Assembly: GCA_951406725.2 (NCBI GenBank)
Contig: OX597824.1
Location: forward strand, 36,394,001-36,458,000
DNA: 64,000 bases
Direction: 5' to 3'
DNA from: Octopus vulgaris
Taxonomy: Eukaryota
The notes under the pieces are model-generated. The model saw nothing but the letters and a program-made list of their open reading frames with translations, ran no database searches and was not told where the DNA came from. This document shows, in pieces, positions 1-49,035 of this stretch. Both the position numbers and the translations under genes were made by a program. Positions within the stretch are counted from its first letter, which is position 1. Each line of letters begins with the position of its first letter.

Positions 1-400
1 GTGCAGTATGTTCAGACCAACTGATATACCTTATCCATGACTCACCAGACTTGACGAATTTCCATATTCCCATCGTCGCGTAGGCTAAAGCTTTCCTGTG
101 GCACAGAGTTGCGATTTAGGGAAGCTACAGATCTTAGCTTTGAACGAACGTACATCAGTTGGTAGGCCAGGACGTGTCCGAAAGGTAATTCTGTTTTCGC
201 GCCGAGCCCTATCAGCGGCTAGATGGTATGCCCGCGCCTCAGTAGAGTTCGAAAACAACAGCTTAATCAATCTGGGTTTGGATCCTGGTCAGTCAAAGCG
301 GAAAGCACTTTTTGGAGGAACACAGCTTAGGTCTTTAGATGTGTTGCCAGTAAATGCCTGTAGATCTATCACATCTTCCGATAGAATCCCATTTCTATGA
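1..400 (-). mobile_element. CR1/L2-like LINE remnant (ORF1-like part); duplicate of 22442-22841
   Basis: Nearly identical to 22442-22841, which is contiguous with an APE-type endonuclease remnant. Minus-strand peptide (F)DRPGSKPRLIKLLF resembles LINE ORF1 C-terminal regions. Confidence 0.6.
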
Positions 401-1039
401 AAACATATTAAAATTAGAATTTTAAAGTTTTATTATTCACACTCAGCAAAATCTCTGCTGAAGTAAATGATGCATAGATGTCTCCATTAATCTTAATCGT
501 CTGGATCCTTAACTTTAAATGTAGAAACCATGTTATAGGTGGGGTTTAACTAAACTAAAACAAAATAGTTATAGTATTTTTTAAAAACTTTTCCAGACTT
601 TTATGAGATTGGAGAGACTTTTATGAAAAGAATGGATGAAAAATTATTTCAGAAACTAAAATGATACAGACTGATGAATAGAATAGATTACTGTATTATC
701 AATTTGAATCCGTAGTGATTATTACTAATTTACTGTTTGATTTCCTAGAATGTAACCAATTAAGATTGCTTCTAATTTTTATTGAGTGGATTCCGTAGCT
801 AAAGCAATTGATATTAACGAGCAATTGAGCAATTGATATTATAGATAAATAAGCACATACTTCGTTAATTCACCTTAAATGTCAGGTAGTAATTTACAAA
901 TAACTCGTGAATTATTTATAATGATAACAATTATTCAGTATATTGGTACAAAAATTTCTTCTCTTCAAGTGTCGGTAAGCAGTAGATTGAATTGATGTGG
1001 ATACTGAGGGGGGGGGGCCCACGTAATGATTAGACTGAC

Positions 1040-1049
1040 TATATAAATA
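1040..1049 (+). promoter_or_regulatory. TATA box of M4 protease copy 1
   Basis: TATATAAATA 85 nt upstream of the ATG at 1125; conserved in copy 2. Confidence 0.6.
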
Positions 1050-1124
1050 AGAGTCAGCAATGATTGAGATACATCTTGAGCTGGTTTTTGAAAAGAGCAT
1101 AGGATTTGTGAATATTACACAATC

Positions 1125-1173
1125 ATGAGGCATTTGATGGTTATATTTTATTCCTGGCATCTCCTATTTGGCA
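1125..1173 (+). CDS. M4 metalloprotease copy 1, exon 1 (N-terminal part of signal peptide)
   Basis: Reads MRHLMVIFYSWHLLFG plus one A, then a GTAAGT donor at 1174. The phase-1 junction joins the acceptor tttttttag|GT at 6385 (codon AGT, Ser), giving MRHLMVIFYSWHLLFGSLLLIKTSDA-AYRV, a plausible signal peptide. Confidence 0.88.
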
Positions 1174-1599
1174 GTAAGTATATTTTCAAGAATTTTTTAT
1201 TATTGAATTTACATGTATTTTATCTTTATATTTTCTGATTATGACAAATTACTTGTTTTCTACATGAAACATTTTATAGAACTTAGGTTTTACTTATGGA
1301 TATTATTTCAATACTTATATGATAGACAGTGGAAACAATGAAGGGTAAAGTTGCTATCACCGTCGAGATATGAACCCAGGTTGTAAATATATGATATTGA
1401 TCATAGCAAAATATGTATTACTCATCTCTAGCATTGCAGTCAGGAGTCTGCTGAGGCACATACACTCAAACACACGTTCGTTCGCTTTATTTTGGTCGCA
1501 CTGCCTTCCAGACGTGCGCCAAAAGTTGGCCCTCTTGTGTTTATGTATCCAAGCTTACTTTGATTGCTCCAGTTTTCTTTCTTGTGTTACAGAGTAAAC

Positions 1600-1720
1600 A
1601 TGGCTGCTCCACTGAAATTGTGCACCAAGGAAGAATAGAGATCTGTGACTTGTTTTTTCTGGTCTAAAGATGTGTTAGGGGCTGAAATTCATTGCAGGCT
1701 TTAGTACGATACAGAGATAT
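1600..1720 (+). mobile_element. Mariner transposase N-terminal remnant in intron (also 24069-24190)
   Basis: Decayed translation MAAPLKLCTKEE*RSV..FFWSKDVLGAEIHCRL matches the mariner N-terminal HTH pattern. Confidence 0.55.
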
Positions 1721-3646
1721 CACTCTACAACTTAGAAGTTCAATAATGGCAAGTCAAGCATGAAGTTTGCTGCCAATGAACATCATTTGAATTTGTAGCA
1801 CCCTCTTTTTTCCTTCATTGAAGTACCTTACAAAAAACAGACCACAAAACTTGTTTGTGACACGATCATATTTTACAAAATTGGCGTTGAATATATCCAC
1901 TTTTCATATATTTTAGCTTTGCCATTATTTTAAACATGTTCCAAACGACACCTTGCTAATTTTGAATATTTGGAATCAAATATGATTTCAGCTGTATTTG
2001 ACTGAATACACTTGTTGCTGATAAATATTGTTGCTTTCTTGCTTGTGTTCTGAGTTTTGTTCTAGACTGCGTTGTATTACTGTCTCTATAATTTTGTACA
2101 ACTGCTTTAAAGTTTGATTAGCTCGGTGAAAAGCTCGGTGAAATCTGCATATTCACTTGTTGATTTTTTTTTTGGTATGGTTCCATATATTATCAATTTG
2201 TTTTAGTTAAGATCGAAATTTTAGAGATCTCTTTTGGTTCTTATAGGATATCTGTGTTTTTGTCTTCCCACATGAGTCAGACTTTGCTGACGTTTTTCTT
2301 CTTTGGATGGTAAATGTGAACATAGAACTAAGTGGGTTTTTTTCATGTGCAAAGAAATATAAAGAAAAGATAAATTGAAAATGCGCTTGAAATTCTTGGA
2401 AAAAAAATATTTTTATTTACTTAAATGGTTTCAAAATGTCATAATTTCTAAATATTCTGTGAACTGGAGAGATGCAGAATTGGAGGTATATTTTTATAAT
2501 AATATACATACATGCATACATACTTATATACATATATGCATAAATACATACATACATACATACATACATACGTACATAAATACATACATATATACGTACA
2601 TACATACATACATCACTGGAACTGTAAAAATCTGTAAAAGTTTTTAGTTTATGATTGAAAAATGACCATATCTAGATATGTAAGTATATGCATGAGAAGG
2701 CATACTTAAAGCAAAAAATACAAATCTGCACGTACGCGTACATACAAACATACAAACATACATACATACATACATACATACATACAAAAATACCCTGTTG
2801 ATGTTGAAGTTCCAATGAAGGAGCCTTGGATGTTGGGTGACAAACACATACACGCAAACATATACACACACATAGCTAAGAGATATAAAATCCGTATGCC
2901 GTCTTCAGTATAATATACCCGAAAAAATATAAATGCAAATATCTTTACATACTCAAACGAATAATACATATTCATACATACATATACATAAATCTGCACG
3001 TATATACAAGTCAAATTTAATTCAATCACCTCAACCACATGCGTTTACGCTCAAAATAATACCCCAGTGAATATAAATTGATCGGAGTAAAACATATATA
3101 TTTATACATGATTAAGGAAAGAATCATTGTAAAGATTTTATCAAGTGGCCAGTGTATAATAAAAACCATATAGGGACAATTAATACTGATATATAATTAT
3201 ACAGATACAATTATAGTAAATGGTTCTGATAAACATCAACACGCTAGAAGTAGACATCAAATAGCTCTAAACTATCTACTACCAGTCAACTTACCGCACC
3301 AAATTCCTTCTTCCTCTCACTCTCTCATATTTTTTCTTCATTCTTCCTTTCTCCCTACATTTATATACCTCTTTCATACTGTACCCTCTACACATTCTGA
3401 TTGAATCTTCTTTGTGTCAAATGGTACCTCCTTGCAACAATATAGCCTTTAATCTAATCAAGATATACTTGGCCTTAAGAGTAGCCCGCGGTATACGCCT
3501 CACTTGGATTTTACCATTTCTGAAATTCCACTTGGAGAAGAGAAGTAACGCGTGCGTTCGGTCATATAGTAATATAATAAATAAAAAAAATATATGCATA
3601 TATACATACATATATGTACATACTTACATCTACATGTATATATACA

Positions 3647-3690
<44 letters not shown>

Positions 3691-3852
3691 TACAGGACCC
3701 CACAAATAAACGTAGAACACAACGAGAGACGAGAATATAAAATCAAACAAAGAAACGGACTTTTTTTAAACAACGAAAAAACAGAGTACAGGACAAACAA
3801 TAAAAGGAAAATTCCCCTTCATCAGCTGTCCCTGGTTCGACTCAAAATGTGT

Positions 3853-3886
<34 letters not shown>

Positions 3887-3904
3887 TGTGTGTGTGTTTG
3901 TGTG

Positions 3905-3942
<38 letters not shown>

Positions 3943-3993
3943 GAGAGAGAGGGGGGCGGAGAGAGGAGAAAGAGATAGATATATACGTATATG

Positions 3994-5194
3994 TACTGGG
4001 TCGGGAAAAAGTTTGTACCAGTTTTTATGTAAAATTCATTAACAATACTTAGATTGTTGTACACACCTTTACTCAACCACATACTTGCCAATTTGTTCCA
4101 CTACTTTTCGTCATCTTTGAAGCAGCATCATGATCCCATCCTCCCAGAGCTTAGCATTTTCCTGGGTCAATGACTGGTCTAAGTGGCTATTATAAATGAT
4201 AATCCGAAGGTGCAAGGTCAGGTAAGTACGATGTGTAGGGCAGGACATCCAACCCAAACTGCACCAATTTCTGCCTGGTCTCCAAAGAAACGTGTGGTCT
4301 AGCGTTGTCCCTTTTGGTTGGCCAATTCTGAACGTTTTTCATCAATTGCCACCTTTAAACAGTCTAATTGGGAACAATAATAGTCTGAATTTAACGTCTG
4401 ATTTTGTGGAAGTAGCTCATAATACACAGTACCCTTCCAATCCCACCAGATACAGAGCATCACCTTCTTCGGATACAGACCAGTTTTGGAGAAATTGAAG
4501 GTGGTTCATCTCGTTTTCACCAGGACCTCTTTCGTTTTATGTTGTTGTAAATAATCCATTTCTCATCACACGTGACTACTCATTTCCAAAATGTATCAAT
4601 TTTGTTTCCTCAGATTAGAGAACCGTAGATGGAAATGCGCTCGATTAAATATTTTTCTGTTAAGCTTTGAGGCACCCAAACATCGTAGCAATTCATATAA
4701 CCAAGTGTTTTTAAATATTTTATAACGCTCGCATGAGATACGTGGATAATCTCTGCGATGTCTCGTACTGTGTAACATAGGTTATTGTATTTTCATAAAA
4801 GTCTCAATTTGTTCATTATCAACGACTGTAGGCCTGCCAGAAAGTTCACGATTTCCAGGTCAAAATTTTTGGTTATAAACCTAGCGAACGACTTACAGAG
4901 AGTAGTTTCAGATATAACACCATCTCCGTAAACAGCGCATATCTTCTTTGCTGTTTGTCCAGCGTTTTTGCCTCCCCGGAAACGAAAGAGCGTTAAATGA
5001 GGAATATGAATTTCATGCTCTTTCTTTTTCAATTTTATCGTAAGAACAGTAGAAGTAAATAATCCGCACAAATTTAAAACTGCAAAATGCGTTGAGATCC
5101 ACTTTTCTAGAAAATATACTAGTCATTTTCTGTCACGTGATAAAACATATCACCTATTGAAGAACGCGACGAACTTTTTTACCAACCCAATGTA
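3994..5194 (-). mobile_element. Decayed near-full-length mariner element in M4 intron
   Basis: Imperfect TIRs (TActgggtcgggaaaaagtt / aactttttt-accaacccaatgTA). ORF 4793-5071 (GKNAGQTAKKICAVYGDGVISETTLCKSFARF) is a mariner HTH region. Confidence 0.85.
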
Positions 5195-5487
5195 TGAATA
5201 TTTGTATCCATATATTTGTATGTATATGTATATAGATCTGGGTGTGTGGGTATACTTTTCATGTGATAATGTATACACATATTTTCACTGATAGATCTAA
5301 TTACAGTTTCTTTGCATCTATGTGTACCTTTCCTTATAAAGCCTTAACATTAATGTTATTTCAAGGGAGTGGGGCCTTGAATGTCATTCCTTTCACACAT
5401 GTGTTTATCTTCTCACTGCTAATGCTTTTGGATGTATATGCATAAATGTAGATGTTTCTTCCCAAATAAATTTCACTTCATATTTCA

Positions 5488-5568
5488 GGCTCTGATGAAG
5501 CAATGTTTGTTTCGCAGGAACTCAACTATGAGTCTACATCATCTTACTGCAGAAACAGTTGTACAGTA
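5488..5568 (+). ncRNA. Degenerate hammerhead-ribozyme-like motif in intron (also about 28224-28308)
   Basis: CTGATGA(5492)...GAAAC-AGTT-GTA(5552-5563); stems I and II are imperfect. Confidence 0.3.
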
Positions 5569-6384
5569 ATGACGTTCACAATACAATTGTTTATCACTCT
5601 GTCGTCTGATTTTCGATACTCTGACGATTAGTGGAGCCTGGGCTGATAGCTGAACATACAAATTCGTCGCAGAAAAAGGTGTCACAGTAATTTAACTTAC
5701 CTGTGGATACAGGGAAGAATGACTTTAGAAATCTAAGAGAAAGATGTCATTGCTAGGAATAATGGATTTACTGACATAAATCTTACATACCTTTGTTGAG
5801 ATCAATGGCTCGGGAAGTGAATTTCTTGGGAACAGAATATAAAACTTAACTCACTTTATGCATCAAGTGCCATTTATTATTTATGCCGTGGTGTACACAT
5901 GTAAATGAGTTACAATAGAATCTTTATAGAAAACATTTGTAATGTGTTTGGAATTGTTCACTTTTATGTTCTGTTGAAATAATACATAACCGATGTGCAG
6001 ACCTTAGTTAACTTGTAGTTTCCAGATACTGATCGTTGTTTTACTAAAAGAACACTCGCTTCCATTCGCTTAAAACTAATCACTCCTTGTAACAAATCAC
6101 CTCCCTATTTCATCAAATATTAAATTAACTGCATGAACAAACTGAATATCTCTTTGGATGAATTTATTCGCACTAAAATAGGTTAGACTGATGTAATTTT
6201 TTTTTATTGGGCAATATATATTATATTATAAGCTCATATTTCTATTAATTTGAATTGTTAAATAATTTAATTCTTTGTTGTTCCGTCACTATGTTTGTAT
6301 GTATTGTTAAAAAATTAGTCTTTTTTAAAAAAAAATTCTGATGGTTCTGTTATTAATAATTGTAATGTTTTCTTTTTTTTTTAG

Positions 6385-8305
6385 GTTTGTTACTGATAAA
6401 GACATCTGATGCAGCTTATCGTGTTGATGCCCATGAAAGAGCAAGGAGGATGATTTATCATCCCTCAGCTCCGTTTCAGCGGCGTCATTTAGATAAAGCT
6501 GAAGTAACAGTCAGAGATCTTCTTGGTTTGAAGGAGTATGAAGAAGTTGAAGAGTCAAACCGTATCAAAACAGTTGAAGGCACAGAAGTTTTACGCTTAC
6601 AAGAGAAGTTCTTAGGTGTTCCTGTTTTTGATGCTTCATTAACTGTTACAGAAGATAAAGATGGACATTTGACTGGTGATGCAACAGGAACATTTATTCA
6701 AGGAATTGAAGATGATATTACAAATGTAAAACCAAAGCTTTCCAAATCAGATGTCTTTGATATTGCTTTTAAAGCAGAGGGAGATGAGATTTACGCAAAT
6801 AGTATCGAACCAGAATATGAAATTATGATTTTCATGGATGAAAATGACAAACCTCGATTAGTATACAATATTAATTATCGAATAGAAAATGAAATAGTTA
6901 TTAAACGGCCTACATTTGTCATTGATGGTAACACTGGAGAAATACTGTTGAAATATAACAATTTAGATACAATTTCCAGAGTACTGACTGGTTCCGGCGG
7001 TAATGAAAAATCAGGAATATACAAATTTAGTGAGAAAAATCACAAAGCTTTTGTAACTCAAATTGGTGACATGTGTTTCCTTGAAAACAATTATGTAAAG
7101 GTTATAGACATGAAAAACAGTTTTGAGGCAGACTCTAATAATACAGATCCTATGTATTATCTTTGTGACGTTGGTTTTAATGATAGTGTCAATGCAGCGT
7201 CATCTCCAGCACTTGATGCTTTCTATTACGGCAGTGTAGTATCTCAAATGTTTCAGGAATGGTATAATACTTCAATACTAAACGAACAAGCTATATTGCG
7301 TGTTCACTTTGGAGAAGATTTTGAAAACGCATTTTGGGATGGGACATATTGCACATTTGGTGATGGCTATAAATACTTTTATCCTTTAACAGATGCTGAT
7401 ATTATCGGGCATGAACTTGCCCATGGCTTCACAGAACAACACTCTGGATTGCTTTACTTTAATCAGTCTGGATCTATGAATGAGGCTTTTTCTGATATGA
7501 CTGGAGAGGTCACTGAAGCTTATGCAAGTGGGAATGACTGGTTAATTGGCTTCAACATCATGAAAGATGAGGAAGCATTGAGATTTATGGCAGACCCATC
7601 CCTGGACAATATATCTATAAGTCATGTAGATAACTTCACAGAAAATATGAATCCCCATCATGGAAGTGGTATTTATAATTTTATTTTTTACTACATTGTG
7701 CAGGAATTAAATATGGATATCAAGGAAGCTTATCGAGTTTTCCTTATTGCCAATGAAATATATTGGCATCCTCATACAGATTTCACTTCAGGGGCTTGTG
7801 ATACTTTGAAGGTTGCCTATGATCTTGGGAAAGATCTAACCCCTTTATTAAAGCCTATGAACTTGTGGGAATTAAACCATGTGATGTAGAGAAACATATT
7901 CGAGGATTGCCATTTAACAAAACAGTCTCAGGTATCACAGTGTCAGTTAAAACAAACCCAGTCTTTGATTTTGTTTATCCAAGCTGGGCTGGGAATATTA
8001 CAATTACTGCCACTAGTATGTGTGGCAAAGTTCATATTAAGGTATCAAAGAGCAATATGATAACAGAGGAAGAAGGTTCAGATGGTTCAGATCTAGTTAC
8101 ATTATTAGCTGAAGGCACATCAGAATTGAATTTGGGGAAGCCTGAAGGACATAAGTTCTTTGTCAAATTATCTCCAGAATCTACTGAAAATTTACAGGAT
8201 GTTAGTATACGTGTTACTTATGGCTGTGATCCAGATTATGTTGGAGAGTCATATATGAGTTATATAGTTCAAATGATGATTTGTAATGAAGATTATGGGT
8301 ATTAA
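6385..8305 (+). pseudogene. M4 (pseudolysin/vibriolysin-like) metalloprotease copy 1, exon 2; frameshifted near 7841 (pseudogene or sequence error)
   Basis: ORFs 6387-7889 and 7865-8305 together align to the single 634-aa ORF of copy 2. HELAH at 7410-7424, GSMNEAFSD and PHHGSGIYN are present. The C-run has 4 C (7840-7843) versus 5 C in copy 2 (30598-30602). Confidence 0.9.
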
Positions 8306-8318
8306 ATATATAATCAGA

Positions 8319-9251
8319 CTAGCTTAAGGTGACACGCTCTACGCGCGGGTGAGTGTGTGGTTGTTACTTTGTGTTGCTTCCTTTCTATATCTTATCAGCA
8401 CATTCTCCCTCTTTGTTTCTCTCTCCTTTCTCTCTCACTTTCCCACTCTCTTACTCTTCCTTTCTCTCGGACTCTCCCTCGCTTTCTCTTACTCTCTATC
8501 TTTCTCTATCTATCTATCTCCCATTTATAAAGAACAAAACATCTTGAGTGAGTTGAGAAAGAAGTATTTTGTAAGATCAATCACAAATATCAGGCAGCGA
8601 CAACGAAAGGCCTGCTTCAAGGCAGACAGCAAAACACTAAAATTTAGAAGGGACAGGCGAACTTGCGAGCTGAACAAAAATGAAAAAATATTGGAAACTA
8701 AATTTTTTATCTTGATGTAACAGAGAATTCCTAAACACACCCTCCTGTGAATTTTAATCCCCTTCCAGTCCCATTTAGACCCCTTTTCATATAGAAATCC
8801 AATTAGTATCAACGTAATCATTCACCGTTCTGAAAGGCCTGTGGCGGGAATATTTAAACTTTTGCGGTTGTCAAAACTTTCTCTCTATAAATACAGACAG
8901 ACATACAGTAAGAGAGGTAGTGATAGAAAGAATAACAGCGACGGCGAAGCTGTCAAACGTCGTTATAGAGAGTAATTGGAGGGGAGGTAGGAAAGAGAGA
9001 GACGGAGGAAGAGAGGGTGATATACGAAAGGGAAAAAGCACAAACACTTGTCAAAATGTGGGTTTTGTTGCCCTAGAAACCACAGCTTTTGAGATAGGGG
9101 TTTCTAGCACTAGTCCACTCACTTCCTCGCCTCTTTTTACATGTCTCTGTAAATTTTGGAGCCAATCCGATCCCATCTAGTACCCCTTAACCCGTTCCAA
9201 TCGCAAAATGAGACAAACAAACTTTTCGCTTTTCAGCTTTATAGATGTTGA
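8319..9251 (-). mobile_element. Non-autonomous Helitron inserted in 3' UTR of M4 copy 1
   Basis: Minus strand reads A|TC...CTAG|T with no TSD and a GC-rich hairpin near the CTAG end. The empty site taatcaga|tttttaac is visible in copy 2 at about 31047-31062. Confidence 0.92.
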
Positions 9252-21589: not shown

Positions 21590-22841
21590 CTCCAGAGGCA
21601 TAAAATTCGAGCCAGTTTCCGCGTCACAGCTCCGTAAATAAGAGTTCCAGTCTGCTTTATTCCAGTCAAATCGGGCAGTTTGAAGACAGTTGTGGTTTTT
21701 GTTACAACCAGAGACAAGTCGGCCATGATCATGGAATGATCAGAGTCACCTAAAGGTTCTTCAGTAGTGACACTAATAATTGTTTCAGGAGAAGCGGTAA
21801 ATAGCAGATCTAAAGAGATGTTACCCCTTGTAGGGGAGTTAACGACTTGAGACCAATTTCAATTCCGCACCAGTTCAAGGAAATCGTCTGCACTTTGCGG
21901 CCAACGGAAGGCCTCTCAGTCAATCTCAGGAAAATTGAAGTTCCCCGCAATATAAACATAAGTGGCTGTTTTCATGGCAGCAACTCTGAGGATATCAAAA
22001 TGTTGTGTGTCTTGATGATAATTTGGGAGACGGTAAACAACTCCGAGTAGAAGTGTTGACATGGTCATGTGTATATTGCAGAAAAATACTTCCTGTTGAG
22101 ATTGGTTCAAATCATCACAAGGAATTGCCGATAGATTTGAACGAACGTAAACCATCACACCCCCACCACGGCGATTAATGCGGTCTTTGCGGAACAGGTT
22201 GTAGCCGGCTATGCTGAAAACCCCATCACAGAGTGCAGAGTGTGCCCATGTTTCCGTGACTGTGATGCAATCTTGGTCGATACTTTTGACGTAAGAGTAA
22301 AAAAGATGTACTTTGTTGCATAAACTACGGGCATTTAAAGACAACAGTTTGTATCTGGATTTCAGATGACGATGATATACAGGGGATGGCTGATTGTTCT
22401 TGTTTAGTTTTCCATGATTTTTGTATTGCCAGTTATTGTGGGTGCAGTATGTTCAGACCAACTGATATCCCTTATCCACGACTCACCAGACTTGACGAAT
22501 TTCCATATTCCCATCGTCGCGTAGGCTAAAGCTTTCCTGTGGCACAGAGTTGCGATTTAGGGAAGCTACAGATCTTAGCTTTGAAAGAACGTACATCAGT
22601 TGGTAGGCCAGGACGTGTCCGAAAGGTAATTCTGTTTTCGCGCCGAGCCCTATCAGCGGCTAGATGGTATGCCCGCGCCTCAGTAGAGTTCGAAAACAAC
22701 AGCTTAATCAATCTGGGTTTGGATCCTGGTCGGTCAAAGCGGAAAGCACTTTTTGGAGGAACACAGCTTAGGTCTTTAGATGTGTTGCCAGTAAATGCCT
22801 GTAGATCTACCACATCTTCCGATAGAATCCCATTTCTATGA
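21590..22841 (-). mobile_element. CR1/L2-like LINE fragment (ORF1 end plus APE endonuclease)
   Basis: ORF 21916-22344: SLNARSLCNK..ITVTETW..GYNLFRKDR..RGGGVMVYV..GVVYR..GNFNFP, the APE-type endonuclease motifs. Confidence 0.85.
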
Positions 22842-23508
22842 AAACATATTAAAATTAGAATTTTAAAGTTTTATTATTCACACTCAGCAAAATCTCTGCT
22901 GAAGTAAATGATGCATAGATGCCTCCATTAATCTTAATCGTCTGGATCCTTAACTTTAAATGTAGGAACCATGTTATAGGTGGGGTTTAACTAAACTAAA
23001 ACAAAGTACATGTTTTGCGAGTTATGATGGTTCAGTCAAGGTATTTTTTAAAAACTTTTCCAGACTTTTACGAGATTGGAGAGACTTTTATGAAAATAAT
23101 GGATGAAAAATTATTTCAGAAACTAAAATGATACAGACTGATGAATAGAATAGATTACTGTATTATCAATTTGAATCCGTAGTGATTATTACTAATTTAC
23201 TGTTTGATTTCCTAGAATGTAACCAATTAAGATTGCTTCTAATTTTTATTGAGTGGATTCTGTAGCTAAAGCAATTGATATTAACGAGCAATTGAGAAAT
23301 TGATATTATAAATAAATAAGCAAATACCTCGTTAATTCACCTTAAATGTCAGGTAGTAATTTACAAATAACTCATGAATTATTTATAATGATAACAATTA
23401 TTCAGTATATTGATACAAAAATTTCTTCTCTTCAAGTGTCGGTAAGCAGTAGACTGAATTGATGTGGATACTGAGGGGGTGGGTGGCCCACGTAATGATT
23501 AGACTGAC

Positions 23509-23518
23509 TATATAAATA
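23509..23518 (+). promoter_or_regulatory. TATA box of M4 protease copy 2
   Basis: TATATAAATA 85 nt upstream of ATG 23594. Confidence 0.6.
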
Positions 23519-23593
23519 AGAGTCAGCAATGATTGAGATACATCTTGAGCTGGTTTTTGAAAAGAGCATAGGATTTGTGAATATTACACAATC

Positions 23594-23642
23594 ATGAGGC
23601 ATTTGATGGTTATATTTTATTCCTGGCATCTCCTATTTGGCA
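23594..23642 (+). CDS. M4 metalloprotease copy 2, exon 1 (signal peptide)
   Basis: Identical to 1125-1173, with GTAAGT donor at 23643 and a phase-1 join to the acceptor at 29142/29143. Confidence 0.88.
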
Positions 23643-25027
23643 GTAAGTATATTTTCAAGAATTTTTTATTATTGAATTTACATGTATTTTATCTTTATAT
23701 TTTCTGATTATGACAAATTACTTGTTTTCTACATGAAACATTTTATAGAACTTAGGTTTTACTTATGGATATTATTTCAATACTTATATGATAGACAGTG
23801 GAAAAAATGAAGGGTAAAGTTGCTATCACCGTCGAGATATGAACCCAGGTTGTAAATATATGATATTGATCACAGCAAAATATGTATTACTCATCTCTAG
23901 CATTGCAGTCAGGAGTCTGCTGAGGCACATACACTCAAACACACGCTCGTTCGCTTTATTTTGGTCGCACTGCCTTCCAGACGTGTGCCAAAAGTTGGCC
24001 CTCTTGTGTTTATGTAACCAAGCTTACTTTGATTGCTCCAGTTTTCTTTCTTGTGTTACAGAGTAAACATGGCTGCTCCACTGAAATTGTGCACCAAGGA
24101 AGAATAGAGATCTGTGACTTGTTTTTTCTGGTCTGAAGATGTGTTAGGGACTGAAATTCATTGCAGGCTTTAGTACGATACAGAGATATCACTCTACAAC
24201 TTAAAGTTCAATAATGGCAAGTCAAGCATGAACTTTGCTGCCAATGAACATCATTTGAATTTGTAGCACCCTCTTTTTTCCTTCATTGAAGTACCTTACA
24301 AAAAACAGACCACAAAACTTGTTTGTGACACGATCATATTTTACAAAATTGGCGTTGAATAAATCCACTTTTCATATATTTTAGCTTTGCCATTATTTTA
24401 AACATGTTCCAAACGACATCTTGCTAATTTTGAATATTTGGAATCAAATATGATTTCAGCTGTATTTGACTGAATACACTTGTTGCTGATAAATATTGTT
24501 GCTTTCTTGCTTTTGTTTTGAGTTTTGTTCTAGACTGCGTTGTCTCTATAATTTTGCACAACTGCTTTAAAGTTTGATTAGCACGGTGAAAAACTCGGTG
24601 AAATCTGCATATTCACTTGTTGATTTTTTTTGGTATGGTTCCATATATTATCAATTTATTTTAGTTAAGATCGAAATCTTAGAGATCTCTTTTGGTTTTT
24701 GTAGGATATCTGTGTTTTTGTCTTCCCACATGAGTCAGACTTTGCTGACGTTTTTGTTCTTTGGATGGTTGTGTTTTTTTTTTCATGTGCAAATAAATAT
24801 AAAGAAAAGATAAATTGAAAATGCGCTTGAAATTCTTGGAAAAAAAATTTTTTATTTACTTAAATGGTTTCAAAATTTCATAATTTCTAAATATTCTGTG
24901 AACTGGAGAGATGCAGAATTGGAGGTATATTTTTATAATAATATACATACATGCATACATACTTATATACATATATGCATAAATACATACATACATACAT
25001 ACATACATACATACATACATACATACA

Positions 25028-25061
<34 letters not shown>

Positions 25062-25968
25062 CGTACATACATACATACATACATCACTGGAACTGTAAAA
25101 ATCTGTAAAATTTTTTAGTTTATGATTGAAAAATGACCATATCTAGATATGTAAGTATATGCATGAGAAGGCATACATAAAGCAAAAAATACAAATCTGC
25201 ACGTACGCGTACATACAAACATACATACATACATACATACATACATACATACATACATACATACATACATACATACATACATACAAAAATACCCTGTTGA
25301 TGTTGAAGTTCCAATGAAGGAGCCTTGGATGTTGGGGGACAAACACATACACGCAAACATATACACACACATAGCTAAGAGATATAAAATCCGTATGCCG
25401 TCTTCAGTATAATATACCCGAAAAAATATAAATGCAAATATCTTTACATACTCAAACGAATAATACATATTCATACATACATATACATAAATCTGCACGT
25501 ATATACAAGTCAAATTTAATTCAATCACCTCAACCACATGCGTTTACGCTCAAAATAATACCCCAGTGAATATAAATTGATCGGAGTAAAACATATATAT
25601 TTATACATGATTAAGGAAGGAATCATTGTAAAGATTTTATCAAGTGGCCAGTGTATAATAAAAACCATATAGGGACAATTAATACTGATATATAATTATA
25701 CAGATACAATTATAGTAAATAGTTCTGATAAACATCAACACGCTAGAAGTAGACATCAAATAGCTCTAAACTATCTACTACCAGTCAACTTACCGCACCG
25801 AATTCCTTCTTCCTCTCACTCTCTCTCCTATTTTTTCTTCATTCTTCCCTTCTCCCTACATTTATATACCTCTTTCATACTGTACCCTCTACACATTCTA
25901 ATTGAATCCTCTTTGTGTCAAATGGTACCTCCTTGCAACAATATAACCTTTAATCTAATCAAGATATA

Positions 25969-26057
25969 CTCGGCCAGAAGAGTAGCCCGCGGTATACGCC
26001 TCACTTGGATTTTACCATTTCTGAAATTCCACTGGCTATGAAACATATGTAGCTGGG
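25969..26057 (+). ncRNA. Type-I hammerhead motif with one core mutation, in M4 copy 2 intron
   Basis: CTCGGC-CAGAAGA-GTAGCC...GGCTAT-GAAAC-ATAT-GTA-GCTGGG. Stems I and II pair over 6 bp each and stem III is the palindrome ACATATGT. Confidence 0.7.
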
Positions 26058-26082
26058 ATTTTTCCTACTCCATTCCATAACT

Positions 26083-26199
<117 letters not shown>

Positions 26200-26496
26200 T
26201 GGAGAAGAGAAGTAACGCGTGCGTTCGGTCATATAGTAATATAATAAATAAATAAAATATATGCATATATACATACATATATGTACATACTTACATCTAC
26301 ATGTATATATACATGCATATATATATATATATATATATGAGTACAGGACCCCACAAATAAACGTAGAACACAACGAGAGACGAGACTATAAAATCAAACA
26401 AGGAAACGGACTTTTTTTAAACAACGAAAAAAACAGAGTACAGGACAAACAATACAGGGAAAATTCCCCTTCATCAGCTGTCCCTGGTTCGACTCA

Positions 26497-26601
<105 letters not shown>

Positions 26602-26613
26602 TGTGTTTGTGTG

Positions 26614-26669
<56 letters not shown>

Positions 26670-26732
26670 GAGAGAGAGAGAGAGAGAGAGGGGGGCGGAG
26701 AGAGGAGAAAGAGATAGATATATACGTATATG

Positions 26733-27930
26733 TACTGGGTCGGGAAAAAGTTTGTACCAGTTTTTATGTAAAATTCATTAATAATACTTAGATAGTTGTA
26801 CACACCTTTACTCAACCACATACTTGCCAATTTGTTCCACTACTTTTCGTCATCTTTGAGGCAGCATCATGATCCCATCCTTCCAGAGCTTACCATTTTC
26901 CTGGGTCAATGACTGGTCTAAGTGGCTATTATGAATGATAATCCGAAGGTGCAAGGTCAGGTGAGTACGATGTGTAGGGCAGGACATCCAACCCAAACTG
27001 CACCAATTTCTGCCTGGTCTGCAAAGAAACGTGTGGTCTAGCGTTGTCCCTTTTGGTTGGCCAATTCTGAACGTTTTTCATCAATTGCCAACTTTAAACA
27101 GTCTAATTGGGAACAATAATAGTCTGAATTTAACGTCTGATTTTGTGGAAGTAGCTCATAATACACAGTATCCTTCCAATCCCACCAGATACAGCGCATC
27201 ACCTTCTTCGGATACAGACCAGTTTGGGAGAAATTGAAGGTGGTTCATCTCGTTTTCACCAGGACCTCTTTCGTTTTATGTTGTAAATAATCCATTTCTC
27301 ATCACACGTGACTACTCTTTTCCAAAATGTATCAATTTTGTTTCCTCAGATTAGAGAACCGTAGATGGAAATGCGCTCGATTAAATATTTTTCTGTTAAG
27401 CTTTGAGGCACCCAAACATCGTAGCAATTCATATAACCAAGTGTTTTTAAATATTTTATAACGCTCGCATGAGATACGTGGATAATCTCTGCGATGTCTC
27501 GTACTGTGTAACATAGGTTATTGTATTTTCATAAAAGTCTCAATTTGTTCATTATCAACGACTGTAGGCCTGCCAGAAAGTTCACGATTTCCAGGTCAAA
27601 ATTTTTGGTTATAAACCTAGCGAACGACTTACAGAGAGTAGTTTCAGATATAACACCATCTCCGTAAACAGCGGATATCTTCTTTGCTGTTTGTCCAGCG
27701 TTTTTGCCTCCCCGGAAACGAAAGAGCGTTAAATGAGGAATATGTATTTCATGCCCTTTCTTTTTCAATTTTATCGTAAGAACAGTAGAAGTAAATAATC
27801 CGCACAAAATTCAAATAGCAAAATGCGTTGAGATCCACTTTTCTAGAAAATATACTCGTCATTTTCTGTCACGTGATAAAACATATCACCTATTGAAGAA
27901 CGCGACGAACTTTTTTACCAACCCAATGTA
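26733..27930 (-). mobile_element. Decayed mariner element (duplicate of 3994-5194)
   Basis: Same TIRs and transposase remnant (ORF 27529-27807). Confidence 0.85.
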
Positions 27931-29142
27931 TGAATATTTGTATCCATATATTTGTATGTATATGTATATAGATCTGGGTGTGTGGGTATACTTTTCATGT
28001 GATAATGTATACACATATTTTCACTGATAGATCTAATTACAGTTTCTTTGCATCTAAGTGTACCTTTCCTTATAAAGCCTTAACATTAATGTTATTTCAA
28101 GGGAGTGGGGCCTTGAATTTCATTCCCTTCACACATTTGTTTGTCTTCTCACTGATAATGCTTTTGGGTGTATATGCATAAATGTAGATGTTTCTTCCCA
28201 AATAAATTTCACTTCATATATCAGGCTCTGATGAAGCAATGAGGTGTTTGTTTCGCAGGAACTCAACTATGAGTCTACATCATTTTACTGCAGAAACAGT
28301 TGTACAGTAATGACGTTCACAATACAATTGTTTATCACTCTGTCGTCTGATTTTTGATACTCTGACGATTAGTGGAGCCTGGGCTGATAGCTGAACATAC
28401 AAATTCGTCGCAGAAAAAGGTGTCACAGTAATTTAACTTACCTGTGGATACAGGGAAGAATGACTTTAGGAATCTAAGGGAAAGATGTCATTGTTAGGAA
28501 TAATGGGTTTAGTGACCTAAATCTTACATACCTTTGTTGAGATCAATGGCTCGGGAAGTGAATTTCTGGGGAACAGAATGTAATACTTAACTCAATTTAT
28601 GCATCAAATGCCATTTATAATTTATGCAGTGGTGTACACATGTAAATGAGTTACAATAGAATCTTTATAGAAAATATTTGTAATGTGTTTAGAATTGTTC
28701 AACTTTTCTCATGTTCTGTTGAAATATTACATAAACGATGTGCAGACCTTAGTTAACTTGTAGTTTCCAGATACTGATTGTTGTTTTACTAAAAGGACAC
28801 TCGCTTCCATTCACTTAAAACTAATCACTCCTTGTAACAAATCACCTCCCTATTTTATCAAATATTAAATTAACTGCATGAACACACTGAATTTCTCTTT
28901 GGATGAATTTATTCACACTAAAATAGGTTAAACTGATGTAATTTTTTTTATTGGACAATATATTTGAAATTGTAAGCTCATATTTGAGCTTATATTGCTA
29001 ATTTAATTCTTTTTTAAATAGATACAGACCTATGTCTGTTGTTCAGTCACTATGTTTGTATGTATTGTTAAAAAATTAGTCTTCTTTTAAAAAAATTCTG
29101 ATGTTGCTGTTATTAATGATTGTAATGTTTTCATTTTTTTAG

Positions 29143-31049
29143 GTTTGTTACTGATAAAGACATCTGATGCAGCTTATCGTGTTGATGCCCATGAAAGAGC
29201 AAGGAGGATGATTTATCATCCCTCAGCTCCGTTTCAGCGGCGTCATTTAGATAAAGCTGAAGTAACAGTCAGAGATCTTCTTGGTTTGAAGGAGTATGAA
29301 GAAGTTGAAGAGTCAAACCGTATCAAAACAGTTGAAGGCACAGAAGTTTTACGCTTACAAGAGAAGTTCTTAGGTGTTCCTGTTTTTGATGCTTCATTAA
29401 CTGTTACAGAAGATAAAGATGGACATTTGACTGGTGATGCAACAGGAACATTTATTCAAGGAATTGAAGATGATATTACAAATGTAAAACCAAAGCTTTC
29501 CAAATCAGATGTCTTTGATATTGCTTTTAAAGCAGAGGGAGATGAGATTTACGCAAATAGTATCGAACCAGAATATGAAATTATGATTTTCATGGATGAA
29601 AATGACAAACCTCGATTAACATACTATATTAATTATAGAATAGAAAATGAAATAGTTATTAAACGGCCTACATTTGTCATTGATGGTAACACTGGAGAAA
29701 TACTGTTGAAATATAACAATTTAGATACAATTTCCAGAGTATTGACTGGTTCCGGCGGTAATGAAAAATCAGGAATATACAAATTTAGTGACAAAAATTA
29801 CAAAGCTTTTGTAACTCAAATTGGTGAAATGTGCTTCCTGGAAAATAACTATGTGAAGGTTATAGACATGAAAAACAGTTTTAATGAAGTCTCTAATAAT
29901 ACAGATCCTATGTATTATCTTTGTGACGTTGGTTTTAATGATAGTGTCAATGCAGCGATATCTCCAGCACTTGATGCTTTCTATTACGGCAGTGTAGTAT
30001 CTCAAATGTTTCAGGAATGGTATAACACTTCAATACTAAACGAACAAGCTATATTGCGTGTTCACTTTGGAGTATATTTTGATAACGCATATTGGGATGG
30101 GAAATATTGCACATTTGGTGATGGCTATAAAAACTTTTATCCTTTTACAGTTGCTGATATTATCGGGCATGAACTTGCCCATGGCTTCACACAACAACAC
30201 TCTAGATTGCTTTACTTTGATCAGTCTGGATCTATGAATGAGGCTTTTTCTGATATGACTGGAGAGGTCACTGAAGCTTATGCAAGTGGGAATGACTGGT
30301 TTATTGGCTTCAACCTCATGAAAAATGAGGAAGCATTGAGATTTATGGCAGACCCATCCTTGGACAATATATCTATAAGTCATGTAGATAACTACACTGA
30401 AAACACGGATCCTCATCATGGAAGTGGGATTTATAATTTTATTTTTTACTACATTGTACACGAATTAAAAATGGATATCAAGGAAGCTTATCGAGTTTTC
30501 CTTATTGCCAATGAAATATATTGGCATCCTCTCTCAAATTTCACTTCCGGAGCTTGTGATACGTTGAAAGTTGCCTATGATCTTGGGAAAGATCTAACCC
30601 CCTTTATTAAAGCCTATGAACTTGTGGGAATTAAACCATGTGATGTAGAGAAATATATTCGAGGATTGCCATTTAACAAAACAGTCTCAGGTATTACAGT
30701 GTCAGTTAAAACAAACCCAGTCTTTTATTTTGTTTATCCAAGCTGGGCTGGGAATATTACAATTACTGCCACTAGTATGTGTGGCAAAGTTCATATTAAG
30801 GTATCAACGAATAATATGCTAGCAGAGGGAGATGGTTCAGATTCAGTTACATTATTAGCTGAAGGCACATCAGAACTGAATTTGGGGAAGCCTGAAGGAC
30901 ATAATTTCTTTGTCAAATTATCTTCAGAATCTACTGAAAATTTACAGGATGTTAGTATACGTGTTAATTATCGCTGTGATCCAGATTTTGATGGAGAGAC
31001 ATTTCTAGATGATTTCTTTCACGAGTTGATTTGTGATAAAAAAATGTAA
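29143..31049 (+). CDS. M4 (pseudolysin/vibriolysin-like) zinc metalloprotease copy 2, exon 2; full protein 651 aa
   Basis: Polypyrimidine-AG acceptor at 29142 and FTP/PepSY-like propeptide. Mature domain GSGGNEKSG, VHFG..FDNAYWDG...FGDG...FYP, HELAH (30168-30182), QSGSMNEAFSD, ALRFM, DPHHGSGIYN, SGAC..VGIKPC. PPC-like C-terminal domain; TAA at 31047-31049. Confidence 0.95.
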
Positions 31050-32171
31050 TCAGATTTTTAACTAATGATTTCAGGAATAATTAATATGTCCAATAATTTA
31101 CAATTTAATCAATGGAGATTTCTTAATTGCTTGCTTTTGCAGATGACAGCAATTTTCCCTTTTTTAATATTTAATTGAAAATACAAATGGAAAATGAAAA
31201 CAAACATAATTTGAATCTTAATTGTTACATTAAAGAATACCATCTTTCAAATTTCAGAATTATCCTCTTTTATTTTACTGATGTACTACATTTGTAATGT
31301 TTGCAGACTTATACAAATCTCTCTCTCTCTCTCTCTCTCTTTCTTAGTCTCAGTCTCACTCTCCTAATGTATGTGTGTGTGCGTGTGTGTACATACAGAC
31401 ATATATATATATATGTATACATACATGCATATATCCAAATTGAGACAGTGAAACAGGTAAAACGCATGCTGCATGTTTCTTATCTAGTTGAGCCCCTTAA
31501 TGTAATAGTTTTGCAACGAGTAATACTGAATGTAATTAATCATCTGGCTGAGATGATCTTAATGAAATGAATGTTACACTGCCGCTCAGAGTTCCCATGC
31601 CAACTCCACCACAGTAGTGAGTGGAGATGGAAAGTGAAGCCAGTAGTACAAAATAAAATTAAAATTAAAAATCAAAAATGTGAAGATGTATGCCAAGAAA
31701 ACCGATAAGCGATAAGCATAGAATTAGACCCAATATGAATATACAAGAGTGTGTCTTTAGATTTGAAGAGTATGAAGAAGAAAAAAAGAGAGAAGGGAAG
31801 AAAGACAGATAGAGAAAAGAGCGAAAATAATTGTCACCATTAAAGGAAAAAAAGAAGATAGGTGACGAGAAATTTTGCTGACTGTTAGAATCTTGTCGTC
31901 CAATTTAGTAAGGATAAAATGGTGATGTTCTCTCTGCAGATATACAAGGTGTTAGTACAACTGGCTTACCCACCTACAACACAGTACATACAACTACGCC
32001 CCAACGGAAATACAACGTAGATACAATCACACACACACACCAACTGCGTGCGCACACAGAACACTTAAACACTCATAAACACATAAACACTCGTAAATAC
32101 CTACAGAGACGCCCGTGTGCCTAAAGGCGTGCTGTTATACATAGGTGTGTGTATGTATGTAAGTATATATG

Positions 32172-39770: not shown

Positions 39771-42700
39771 TACGCACATAAATTCTTCCGCTTCACGCCA
39801 ACTTCAAAAGAACTTCACTCATACAATCGTGCTCTCTCTGTCTCTTTCGCTTTCACGCCGACTTCAAAGAGTGAAGGAGTAAAAAACAAGATATTTTCAC
39901 TTGTCCGGGCATTGCTATTACAGACAAATTAACAACAATTCGACTCAAGAGATAAACACAAACCACCCCGTGCTAACTGCAAAAATCCCGCCAAATTAGC
40001 CGGAAAAACACACACACGTCCATTTCATATATCTTCTTTCAATTTCTGCTCTCTGATTACACATATGTCCTATACAATAGTTCTCAGCTACATTTTCTTC
40101 TCTAAAGTGTCTATTTTTTCTGTAAGCGTATAACAATGACTTCTATACTTCTCCACTTAGCTTTTATCTTCACTTTTCTTAAATTGGATATGTCTGCTAT
40201 TAAGTTGCAGAACTTTAGCAGTACAGTTAAAAATCATTTCTGCTTTACTTCTTACATACAATTTGCCTGTAAATTCTTACAACTTCATTTTTTGGTGATG
40301 ACTGAAATGTTAAACATTTTCTAACTGTTAAAGCAATTCTTAACGTCAACTTCTTAATGCCTCTTTTATTTTTTTCCTAGCACCCATACTTACCAAGATC
40401 GATTAAAACTTCTCATGAAATTCCCTCTTTGTTTCCCCATTAAAACAACCAGTTGCTCACACAGCCGCCATATAACAAGGGGCCTATAGGGTGACAGTCA
40501 GCCCAAACTTTCCTTATGCTGTCTCTCTTCTTTCACCTCTTTGTGGGGTTAACTATCTTCATCTTTAGTTACAGTTTCTCATTCAAACTACATAATACGC
40601 AGAATTGTCAGATTAATACAGTAAGGTGTTTTGAGGGAGATTTTGCTGCTATTTCTACCAGATCTACCTACCATGTAGACGTCTGAACTTAATTTTCATT
40701 CACAGATTTGCATTTCAAAAATTTCACATAATCTTTTTCCATAAATCAACTATCGTAAAAATGTTCTAACATGACCTTACATTTTTTATGTATGTGTGTA
40801 TACCTTAAAAGACGTTATTAGACAGAGGTCCAATAGAATAGTTCTCAGAAACAGACTACGTAAAAATTCTTTCATCAGAACTCCTGAAGCTGTTTTTTGC
40901 GAAGATATTTTCACTTGTCCGGGCATTGCTATTACAGACAAATTAACAACAATTTGACTCGAGAGATAAACACAAACCACCTCGTGCTGACTGCAAAAAT
41001 CCCGCCAAATTAGCCGAAAAACACACACACACACACATACACACGCATGTCCATTTCATATGCCTTCTTTCAATTTCTGCTTTCTTGGATGCTCCCGGCG
41101 GAACCGGAAAAACTTTTCTCATGAACCTCCTGCTCGCCACAATTCGCCAGGAAAATCAGATTGCCATAGCGGTTGCATCAAGCGGCATTGCGGCAACTCT
41201 ACTGCATGGCTGTCGTACGGCACACTCAGCCTTCAAATTACCACTAGACTTGACCAAACAGGAAAATCCAACTTGCAATGTTAGTCGTGGCTCAGCCATG
41301 GGGAATCTCACTGAGTGCAGCCTTATAATTTGGTATGAGGCAACCATGTATCATAAGGCGGCTTTTGAGGCGCTCGATCGGTCTCTTCAAGACCTAAGAC
41401 GCAATATGAGAGTGATGGGTTGAGTGACTGTTCTGCTTGCTGGCGACTTCTGACAAACTCTACCAGTCATTCCATGGGGGACAAGAGCTGACGAGGTAAA
41501 TGCTTCCATAAAATCATCCTACTAATGGCACCACACCGAGAAACTTCACCTGACTACGAACATGAAAGTTCACGTGCATGGCGACGAAAACGCGGCCACA
41601 TTCTCGGCACAGCTTCTCGACGTTGGTAATGGAACTGCAGCTAGTGATACTGATGGTTCCATCCATTTACTATCTGGCAACTTTGTGCCTACCGTGGATG
41701 ATTTGATTCCTTCAGTTTTTTCTGACATTGCATACCAAAGCCTTGACACAACTTACCTACAAGGAAGAGCAATTTTGGTGCCTGACAATAAAACAGTCGA
41801 CGCTATCAATAATAAACTTCTCGATATGCTTCCTGTAGAAAAACTCTCCCTTCAAAACCATTGGCATGCATGAAAACCCGGATGATACGACCGTTTTCAC
41901 AACAGAATTCCTTAATTCCTAAACGCACGCAGGACTTCCGCCTCACGAACTCCATCTTAAAGTTGGCGCGCCCATCATGCTGCTGCGGAATTTCGATGCT
42001 CCAATAATGTGTAACGGCACGCGGATGATAATCAAAAAATTATACTCCCGAGTTCTGCAGGCAACTATCTTGAATGGACCAGCTGCTGGTCAAGATGTTC
42101 TTATAACTCCAATGTCCGTCACTCCCTCCGATACGATCTACAAGTTTAAGCGGCTCCAATTTCCTATCAAACTCTGCTTTGCAATGTCAATAAATAAGGC
42201 ACAGAGTCAATCATTGCAAATGATTGGTTTAAATCTCACAGAGCAAGTGTTCTCCCACGGTCAACTTTACGTTGGATGCTCTCGTGTTGGCAGACCACAA
42301 AGTCTATACTTTGTACATCAGAAGGGAAAAAGAGAAACGTTGCCTACAAAGAAGCGCTCCACTGAAAAGACGGCATTTCTTCACATCTTTCAAATCATCC
42401 CAGTCTGCCGCCTCAAAAGCTTCGTCTTCGCCATGCCAGCCAACGTAACTCAATGACACACACCTTCACTCACTTGCTCTATCTCACCCTCTTTCTCTCT
42501 CTTACATACACACACACAAGCACGCACGCACACACACACACACGTCCATTTCACATAGCTTCTTTAAATTTTTGCTCTCTGCAAATAAATTTTTACGGAT
42601 ACAACTGCTTACAAAAATAGGGGTTAATGTATAATTTCTTTCTATGTTCATAGTTAAATAAATGTTTTAATAATTAGACAGAGGTGGTTTGTAAGTGATT

Positions 42701-47774: not shown

Positions 47775-49035
47775 TACCAGGTTGAGTCAAAAGTTCTTTT
47801 GGATTTTCATTCATAATTTCTGGTAACTCATATCTCCATGTTATATCATTAATTTGATACAACCTGTTCATTCATTGCTGAATTGTTTATTCTTTATTCT
47901 CATATATAAAATGTGAACAATAATTGTTTATTCTTTATTTTACAGCTTTGATAATATGTGGTGAAAAAAAATTGGAATAAGAGCCATTTTACACTACCTG
48001 TGAAAAACGGACTGAATGCATAGGCAGTGGCAAAAGAAATTAATGATGTGGAAGGCCCAAGAAGTGTCAACAAACATGTGGTTCAAAACTGGTTCAGATA
48101 TTTCAAGAAAGATGACAACAGCTTCAAAGACAAATCACGGTCAGGACGACCTTCTGTTGTGGAGGATGAGGCCTTATCTGTAATGGGTGGACAGTCAAGC
48201 ACAAGTACTCATACATTGTTGATAGAACTTGCTCCTTCACAAAACACCATCAATTGACACCTCCATAAGCTCAGCCTTGTGAATAGACACTATCAATATA
48301 CTTCTTGTGAACTGACCAATGATCTGCTCAATGATACGTAAAAATTTGCAAACAACTGCTAATAAATCCTCAAGATGCCTGTTTTTGGTGTTGAAATGCA
48401 ATGGGGATGAAAATTGGATCTATTTTCATAATCTTAATAAGAAAAATCAGTGGCTTCACTCTGATAACACTTCAGAACCAGTTGTCAAACAAGGGTCATT
48501 TGAACAGAAGGCCTTGTTGTATGTTTTGGTGGAATCTCAGTCAGGTGTTACATTTTGGGCTTGTCCCAGATTATCATGCTGTAAACACTAACCTTTATGA
48601 CCAACAACTGCAACAAGTATATGATGCTTTGAAAGCCCTCTACCTGGCATTGAGCAATCAAAGATATGCACACCTACAGCATGACACAACCTCATCACAT
48701 ACTGCTAATGTAACCAAGAGCAGACTTGAGGAAGTTGGGGGGCTGGAAGTGCTACTTTACCCTGTCTACAGTCCAGATTCTGCACCATCAGATTACCACC
48801 TTTTCTGAGCCATAGCTCATTTCCTGGATGGACGGAGGTTCAACAATGTGGATGAGGTTTATTTCCAAACCAATGAAATTGTACACGTATGGAATTGAGT
48901 TTCTGGTTCAAAGATGGCAAGAGACAATAGAATATGATGGAATATATTTTGATGGATAAATGCTTTTCCTAAGTACTTTGATTGAACTATTAATTAAAGC
49001 TTGAAATATGAGAAAACTTCTAACTCAATCTGATA
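47775..49035 (+). mobile_element. Decayed mariner element
   Basis: TA-flanked imperfect TIRs (ccaggttgagtcaaaagtt / aacttctaactcaatctga). Fragments VVQNWFRYFK..RSGRP, GDENWIYF and YSPDSAPSDYHLF. Confidence 0.9.

Follow-up and report, generated by a model that had tools for sequence, protein, structure and literature searches.

Two neighbouring genes for M4 peptidases lie in the analysed window, a stretch of 64,000 nucleotides of Octopus vulgaris DNA, and they raise the question of what shaped the differences between their substrate clefts. A sequence-only reading of the window proposed diversifying selection on substrate or inhibitor recognition, as in venom or host-pathogen gene families. 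Based on the analyses presented here, selection probably keeps type-specific pocket residues while gene conversion evens out the remainder of the copies.

Gene structure, family and origin of the two copies

The window consists of microsatellite-rich animal DNA with a tandem duplication, and each duplication unit contains one two-exon gene made of a 49-base coding exon and one long exon (Table 1). The protein encoded by exon 2 of copy 2 matches O. vulgaris CAI9730016 along that exon. The public model CAI9730016 (P0098) joins the tail of copy 1 beyond its frame break to copy 2, bypassing the exon 1 at 23594, and this fusion is probably a misannotation. The frame of copy 1 is broken near 7840 (7836-7840) in a homopolymer run, past the catalytic residues, and CAI9730015 has the same break. 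As the unbroken, near-identical CAI9730014 is annotated beside it, copy 1 may have arisen by a very recent duplication or represent an uncollapsed haplotype; it may also contain a consensus error. About 940 bp directly after the stop of copy 1 (8310-9249) are missing in copy 2, and the shared 3' sequence restarts at 9250 on the copy 1 side and at 31053 on the copy 2 side. Pieces of a PIF1 helicase (Helitron-like), a mariner-type transposase and a LINE-like endonuclease were also detected in the window.

Table 1. Features of the two M4 peptidase genes and their surroundings (positions in the window; aa, residue number counted from 29145)
Feature	Position	Strand	Remarks
Tandem duplication, unit 1	1..8290	+	offset about 22.5 kb; unit 2 at 22442-31040
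Copy 1 (type B), coding exon 1	1125..1173	+	
Copy 1, exon 2	6385..8305	+	matches O. vulgaris CAI9730015 (517 aa)
Copy 1, cleft segment	7314..7463	+	0/50 differences from CAI9730014 and from O. sinensis XP_029642704
Copy 2 (type A), coding exon 1	23594..23642	+	signal-peptide-like N-terminus, phase-1 donor
Copy 2, exon 2	29143..31049	+	open frame; propeptide, M4 catalytic domain, PPC-like tail
Propeptide, FTP/PepSY	29145..29729	+	near-identical between copies, 3 nonsynonymous and 1 silent differences
Copy 2, cleft segment of the sequence-only reading	30072..30221	+	aa 310-359, LasB 108-157; edge strand, S2'/S1' loop, HEXXH helix
aa 313, LasB Glu111 (S2' rim)	30081..30083	+	Asp in copy 2, Glu in copy 1
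aa 316, LasB Tyr114 (S1)	30090..30092	+	Tyr in copy 2, Phe in copy 1
aa 330, LasB Met128 (S2')	30132..30134	+	Asn in copy 2, Tyr in copy 1
aa 334, LasB Leu132/thermolysin Leu133 (S1' pocket)	30144..30146	+	Phe in copy 2, Leu in copy 1
HELAH zinc motif	30168..30182	+	unchanged; third ligand Glu at 30240-30242
aa 391, LasB Ile190 (S1')	30315..30317	+	Leu in copy 2, Ile in copy 1; outside the segment
Silent-rich patch, likely conversion tract(s)	30360..30569	+	11/18 mature silent differences, codons 406-475
C-terminal beta-sandwich, PPC-like	30642..31046	+	PPC domain 5sv5, E 1.3e-4; without Pfam match
Mobile-element remnants	41085-42453, 48401-48805, 21919-22344		

The Pfam families Peptidase_M4 (PF01447) and M4_C (PF02868) were matched above the curated cut-off, FTP was matched as well, and PepSY scored below the cut-off. 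Residues H342, E343, H346, E366, H424 and R399, i.e., the HEXXH motif with the third Glu ligand and the catalytic His and Arg, are present in both copies, and five catalytic or zinc residues are all retained in 40 of 40 aligned sequences. The nearest solved relative by sequence is Pseudomonas LasB. A predicted model (pLDDT 92.6, alignment of 46 sequences) matched ProA, vibriolysin MCP-02 and LasB with E values of 1e-30 or better and an rmsd of 1.4-2.3 Å. This predicted fold resembles the LasB/pseudolysin-vibriolysin-ProA group (PDB 1ezm, 3nqx, 6ya1; target TM 0.87-0.96, 35-40% identity), with which the copies share the HEXXH and Glu zinc site, the FTP/PepSY propeptide, the equivalents of Arg198 and His223 and a PPC-like tail resembling that of vibriolysins. 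The match of the tail to 5sv5 is a weak fold match, and PF04151 on 23% of the Atlas members is a lead in the same direction. Judging by sequence and predicted model, the genes encode secreted LasB/vibriolysin-type M4 zinc endopeptidases.

The two copies belong to an array of about five types of M4 peptidase in tandem, with CAI9730012-16 and CAI9730734 as its members in O. vulgaris. The types are supported by the tree and are labelled A (copy 2), B (copy 1), C, D and E. In O. sinensis there are five types and in O. bimaculoides at least four genes; Argonauta gave one match. Unlike the bacterial enzymes, the Octopus enzyme is encoded in an animal nuclear genome, by a tandemly arrayed gene whose intron is spliced, and some array types alter positions that the bacterial group keeps: the equivalent of Asn112 is Glu, Gly or Asp, and that of Leu197 is Tyr in type D. 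Every named eukaryote match was a mollusc (bivalve, gastropod or cephalopod). In a quick tree with thermolysin-like sequences as the root, the 16 mollusc-type sequences formed a single clade (SH-aLRT 100) within the LasB/vibriolysin-type group (99), with a sister support of just 83. The mollusc M4 genes are thus consistent with an old transfer from bacteria.

Amino-acid differences in and around the substrate cleft

The codon-by-codon comparison of the 50-codon segment revealed 11 single-base differences between the copies, of which 11 were nonsynonymous and none was silent. The recount gave exactly the figures and the same 11 substitutions listed in the sequence-only reading, together with an identical HELAH motif in both copies. 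Its description of copy 1 as more acidic and copy 2 as more neutral or basic was likewise borne out: the segment carries 9 acidic and 1 basic residues in copy 1 and 6 and 3 in copy 2, a five-unit charge shift. Transversions account for 9/11 differences, where about 55% are expected (P 0.064). The probability of no silent change among 11 was 0.066, 0.043 and 0.033 at kappa 1, 2 and 3, respectively. An equally clean 50-codon window appeared somewhere in 0.21-0.30 of the simulations with neutral labels, and shuffling of the observed labels gave P = 0.024 for a window this clean. By itself the 11:0 count is weak evidence (P 0.03-0.07, or 0.2-0.3 allowing for the choice of window), and dN/dS > 1 in the segment had a nominal P of 0.04, with an outcome that varies with the assumed clock. 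These probabilities also suit the main rival explanation, which we regard as unlikely, in which constraint is relaxed on redundant copies, the rim of the cleft is tolerant, and the lack of silent changes is luck in a window chosen post hoc.

Across the whole gene, 29 amino-acid differences fall in the mature part (aa 196-484) and 2 in the pro part, as counted before. The silent differences, omitted from that earlier count, number 18 and 1, respectively, so the contrast of 29 to 2 loses its value as evidence of selection. The dN/dS between the copies was 0.45-0.58 for the mature domain, and thus below 1 domain-wide; it was 0.34-0.43 before the segment and 0.25-0.32 after it. Such flanking values (0.25-0.43 for the mature domain outside the segment) argue against relaxed constraint, as do the catalytic and zinc residues kept throughout the alignment. 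The propeptide is the most conserved part between the tandem paralogs (2/156 differ) and was probably homogenised by gene conversion; in several cross-species pairs it outpaces the mature part (scallops 47/156).

The alignment with LasB is gap-free across the segment, and the LasB number equals the residue number minus 202, or minus 201 past LasB 181. A list of 15 residues of the S1, S1' and S2' subsites (LasB 111-115, 128, 129, 132, 137, 155, 186, 187, 190, 197 and 198) was compiled from passages of PMC9404851 and PMC4407726, the latter printing Tyr157, which is taken here as LasB Tyr155. Four of the 11 segment sites are on the list (equivalents of Glu111, Tyr114, Met128 and Leu132). Types A and B differ at 5/15 subsite positions and at 24/274 other mature positions (P 0.011), a test that is not blind, as the list was gathered knowing some of the differing residues. 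The remaining seven sites (LasB 108, 109, 118, 134, 148, 152 and 157) appear from the alignment to lie beside the edge strand and the helix of the zinc site. At residue 313, the copy 2 ortholog from O. sinensis has Ala. Residues 310, 311 and 330 vary across most M4 sequences, which would fit relaxed constraint, and the same may be said of aa 350 and 354, where copy 2 alone among the tested Octopus types is altered. At these two positions (30192-30206) copy 2 has Gln and Arg, most M4 sequences have the equivalents of Glu148 and Gly152, and O. bimaculoides XP_052827947 has Tyr and Glu.

The segment does span the edge strand and a residue of the S1' pocket, as the sequence-only reading stated, and it includes the S2'/S1' loop; the F-x-P-L motif places aa 334 at thermolysin Leu133. 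According to PMC12643060, the Leu/Phe exchange at thermolysin 133 changes the P1' preference and, in kinetic terms, explains roughly half of the P1' difference that separates thermolysin from EA1; the effect is about two-fold and invisible in an overnight proteome digest. Thermolysin and Geobacillus EA1 or TLP-ste carry Leu133 and Phe133 at F-x-P-[L/F], as copy 1 and copy 2 do. The Octopus copies are only about 25% identical to those enzymes, and an effect on their specificity is predicted by analogy.

The same subsite positions were analysed in other paralogs by parsimony, leaving out P0011 (mis-modelled N-terminus, also left out of the trees) and the near-duplicates P0102, P0103, P0010 and P0104. 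The Octopus sequences without types A and B had 1.33 changes per site at subsites and 0.65 elsewhere (P 0.015), and four paralogs of the apple snail Pomacea had 1.20 and 0.40 (P 0.0002). The corresponding values were 0.53 and 0.69 for Argonauta with four other cephalopod-like sequences, and 0.00 and 0.18 for three scallops. The share of subsite positions that differ exceeded the background in 11/13 pairs of presumed paralogs, of which 4 reached P<0.05, and in 3/13 cross-species pairs, of which none did, where cross-species orthology, and the same species for most ENA pairs, are presumed. Relaxed constraint would not favour subsites, which change about 2-3 times as often in the paralogs and not in the cross-species pairs. 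The Asn112 equivalent is altered in types C and D and in an O. bimaculoides gene; in type D, so are the equivalents of Leu132 and Leu197. The ENA records P0114-P0118, P0121 and P0122 form another multi-copy set of mollusc-type M4 sequences, and one same-contig pair in it differs at 7/50 segment residues and 7/237 elsewhere.

The excess over the whole segment behaved differently from that at the subsites. It was absent between types C and D (10/50 vs 40/239, P 0.35) and not significant in Octopus without types A and B (rank 0.104), and it was rejected as a general feature of the array. One cross-species pair showed it, namely type E of O. vulgaris and O. bimaculoides (17/50, P 0.005). The changes appear, on the aligned positions, to be concentrated on the functional surface. 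For the proposed diversifying selection on recognition this means that the subsite enrichment, repeated in independent paralog pairs, stands. By contrast, the pair itself does not establish dN/dS > 1, most of its segment sites are off the subsite list, and the excess across the segment is lost without it.

Silent differences and the neutral clock

The silent differences are distributed in patches: five lie at codons 230-237, 11 at codons 406-475 and a single one across codons 238-405, where 20 nonsynonymous differences were counted. A stretch of 169 codons with at most one of the 18 silent differences occurred in 0 of 20000 uniform simulations. O. sinensis type B carries type A residues at 421, 422, 439 and 442, and O. 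vulgaris type B has Met421-Asn422 in common with type D. Just ahead of the catalytic His, copy 1 reads Met-Asn (7647-7652) and copy 2 Thr-Asp (30405-30410), the Asp corresponding to LasB Asp221; the Met-Asn of copy 1 may have been acquired by conversion. In run X10, depth arithmetic on 11 listed places suggests that one contig (depth 7.6) is a mosaic, joining the type B cleft to type A sequence downstream. The patchy silent differences and the shared states are consistent, as far as the aligned sequences go, with gene conversion.

The non-coding divergence between the units was 0.018 over 4.8 kb upstream and 0.079 over the final 600 bp of the intron, which makes the neutral clock of the cleft uncertain. 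The end of the intron (5750-6370 vs 28491-29130) is 7.9% diverged, the upstream DNA 1.8% and the propeptide 0.7%. With a clock of 0.025, 2.8 nonsynonymous differences are expected against the 11 observed (scan-corrected P 0.009), and at clocks of 0.018-0.025 the P for 11 nonsynonymous differences in any window was 0.0006-0.009 even at omega 1. With a clock of 0.08-0.09, as given by the intron end and the mature silent sites, 11 equals the expectation at omega 1, and a uniform omega of 0.5 gave 11:0 in just 2-4% of runs. A uniform omega of 0.5 made such a window improbable (P <= 0.035) under 5/5 clocks tried, whereas a uniform omega of 1 was rejected solely at clocks <= 0.025. The segment departs from the rest of the mature domain under either clock. 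Relaxed constraint draws support from the higher clock values, as a clock of 0.08 with omega 1 yields such a window about half the time.

The pattern recalls the model of Teshima and Innan, in which copies remain alike along conversion tracts and differences are retained at functional sites. Under this model, silent divergence should reportedly peak close to the selected sites; in the Octopus copies, by contrast, it is lowest at the cleft (1 in 168 codons) and the patches flank it.

Retention of the types, expression and possible role

Between O. vulgaris and O. sinensis, orthologs of types A-E differ at 1, 0, 0, 1 and 0 of the 50 segment residues, respectively, and different types within O. 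vulgaris differ at 10-19/50. Each cleft type thus appears, from the predicted proteins, to be preserved in two Octopus species, a further point against relaxed constraint. As both cleft types are kept in O. sinensis, the 11 differences are not the decay of the frameshifted copy 1. Decay of a pseudogene was rejected for copy 1, whose segment matches two unbroken proteins at every residue, one of them from the assembly of the other species, and the alternative of relaxed constraint on a dead copy, raised by the sequence-only reading itself, is excluded by the retention of the types. An artefact, whether a dead copy 1 in decay or an assembly error, would fit the frame break near 7840 and the adjoining unbroken CAI9730014, but it is highly improbable given those identities and the single difference in 50 between copy 2 and O. 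sinensis XP_029643300.

If selection keeps the pockets against conversion, each array type would, after duplication, have fixed its own residues in and around the S1, S1' and S2' subsites, and the fixed sets would give enzymes with different cleavage or inhibitor preferences. Conversion between neighbours would homogenise the propeptide, the upstream DNA and patches of the catalytic domain. Selection would purge conversions that overwrite the pocket, leaving a cleft rich in amino-acid differences and poor in silent ones.

Ongoing diversifying selection, in an arms race with inhibitors of prey or pathogens as in venom families, was also considered. Venom families such as snake SVMPs and conotoxins evolve under positive selection, and the array resembles them in the tandem expansion of a secreted protease and in amino-acid change at the functional surface. 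The 11:0 count with nine transversions, the charge shift and the type E pair would suit an arms race. So would a hint that change has continued: orthologs in O. vulgaris and O. sinensis differ at 3/75 subsite positions and at 16/1370 others. Moreover, an insect inhibitor of M4 enzymes is known (IMPI complexes 7skl and 7skm). Unlike the venom families, Octopus has a whole-domain dN/dS below 1 and near-static orthologs. The pattern also occurs in the apple snail, to our knowledge a grazer not known as venomous. We therefore hold an arms race to be quite improbable; the near-static orthologs better fit a fixed specialisation, and nothing was found that ties the genes to venom. No M4 name occurs in the searched part of the O. 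vulgaris salivary-gland proteome supplement (PMC7693380), which may speak against an arms race of the venom kind. Likewise, no M4 entry was found in the available portions of the texts PMC12607849, PMC12032550, PMC7693380 and PMC12773714 or of the supplements of PMC12607849 and PMC10138644.

In a contig of run X10, exon 1 continues directly into 29143, which shows that one of types A and B is transcribed and spliced; the exon 1 sequence does not discriminate between the two. The copy 2 letters at 30192, 30204 and 30219 are absent from the listed contigs of X1, X3 and X10 and present in X8. The listed run contigs are unphased and cover 40/396 variant places and 32/221 pieces. In poly(A) RNA-seq of O. 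vulgaris paralarvae, PMC6635378 reports transcripts annotated from Vibrio as 'virulence metalloprotease' and 'neutral protease' whose levels in wild animals exceeded those in reared ones (log2 1.8-3.4). As RefSeq assigns the same names to Octopus M4 genes, these transcripts, matched by name alone, may derive from the genes described here. Going by these findings on PMC6635378 and PMC7693380, the most likely use is broad extracellular protein digestion, the digestive role being a guess.

The databases name these genes after virulence proteases of Vibrio or Pseudomonas, and octopus transcripts could pass for bacterial ones. No paper describing the mollusc M4 family or its subsite pattern was found in the largely open-access literature covered. 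The process itself is well known, and the subsite divergence, which is real and replicated, concerns a family that is little described. On a wider scale, we tentatively suggest, as a possibility that is itself rather doubtful, that a bacterial protease of vibriolysin type gained in early molluscs went through separate amplifications in Octopus, in the apple snail and in one or more further lineages, with the same S1, S1' and S2' residues retuned by positive selection against conversion, and that the resulting panel of specificities also evades M4 inhibitors of prey or microbes. The array would represent a natural series of predicted M4 specificity variants in an animal, repeated in separate mollusc lineages, on which the divergence of duplicates under gene conversion can be tested.
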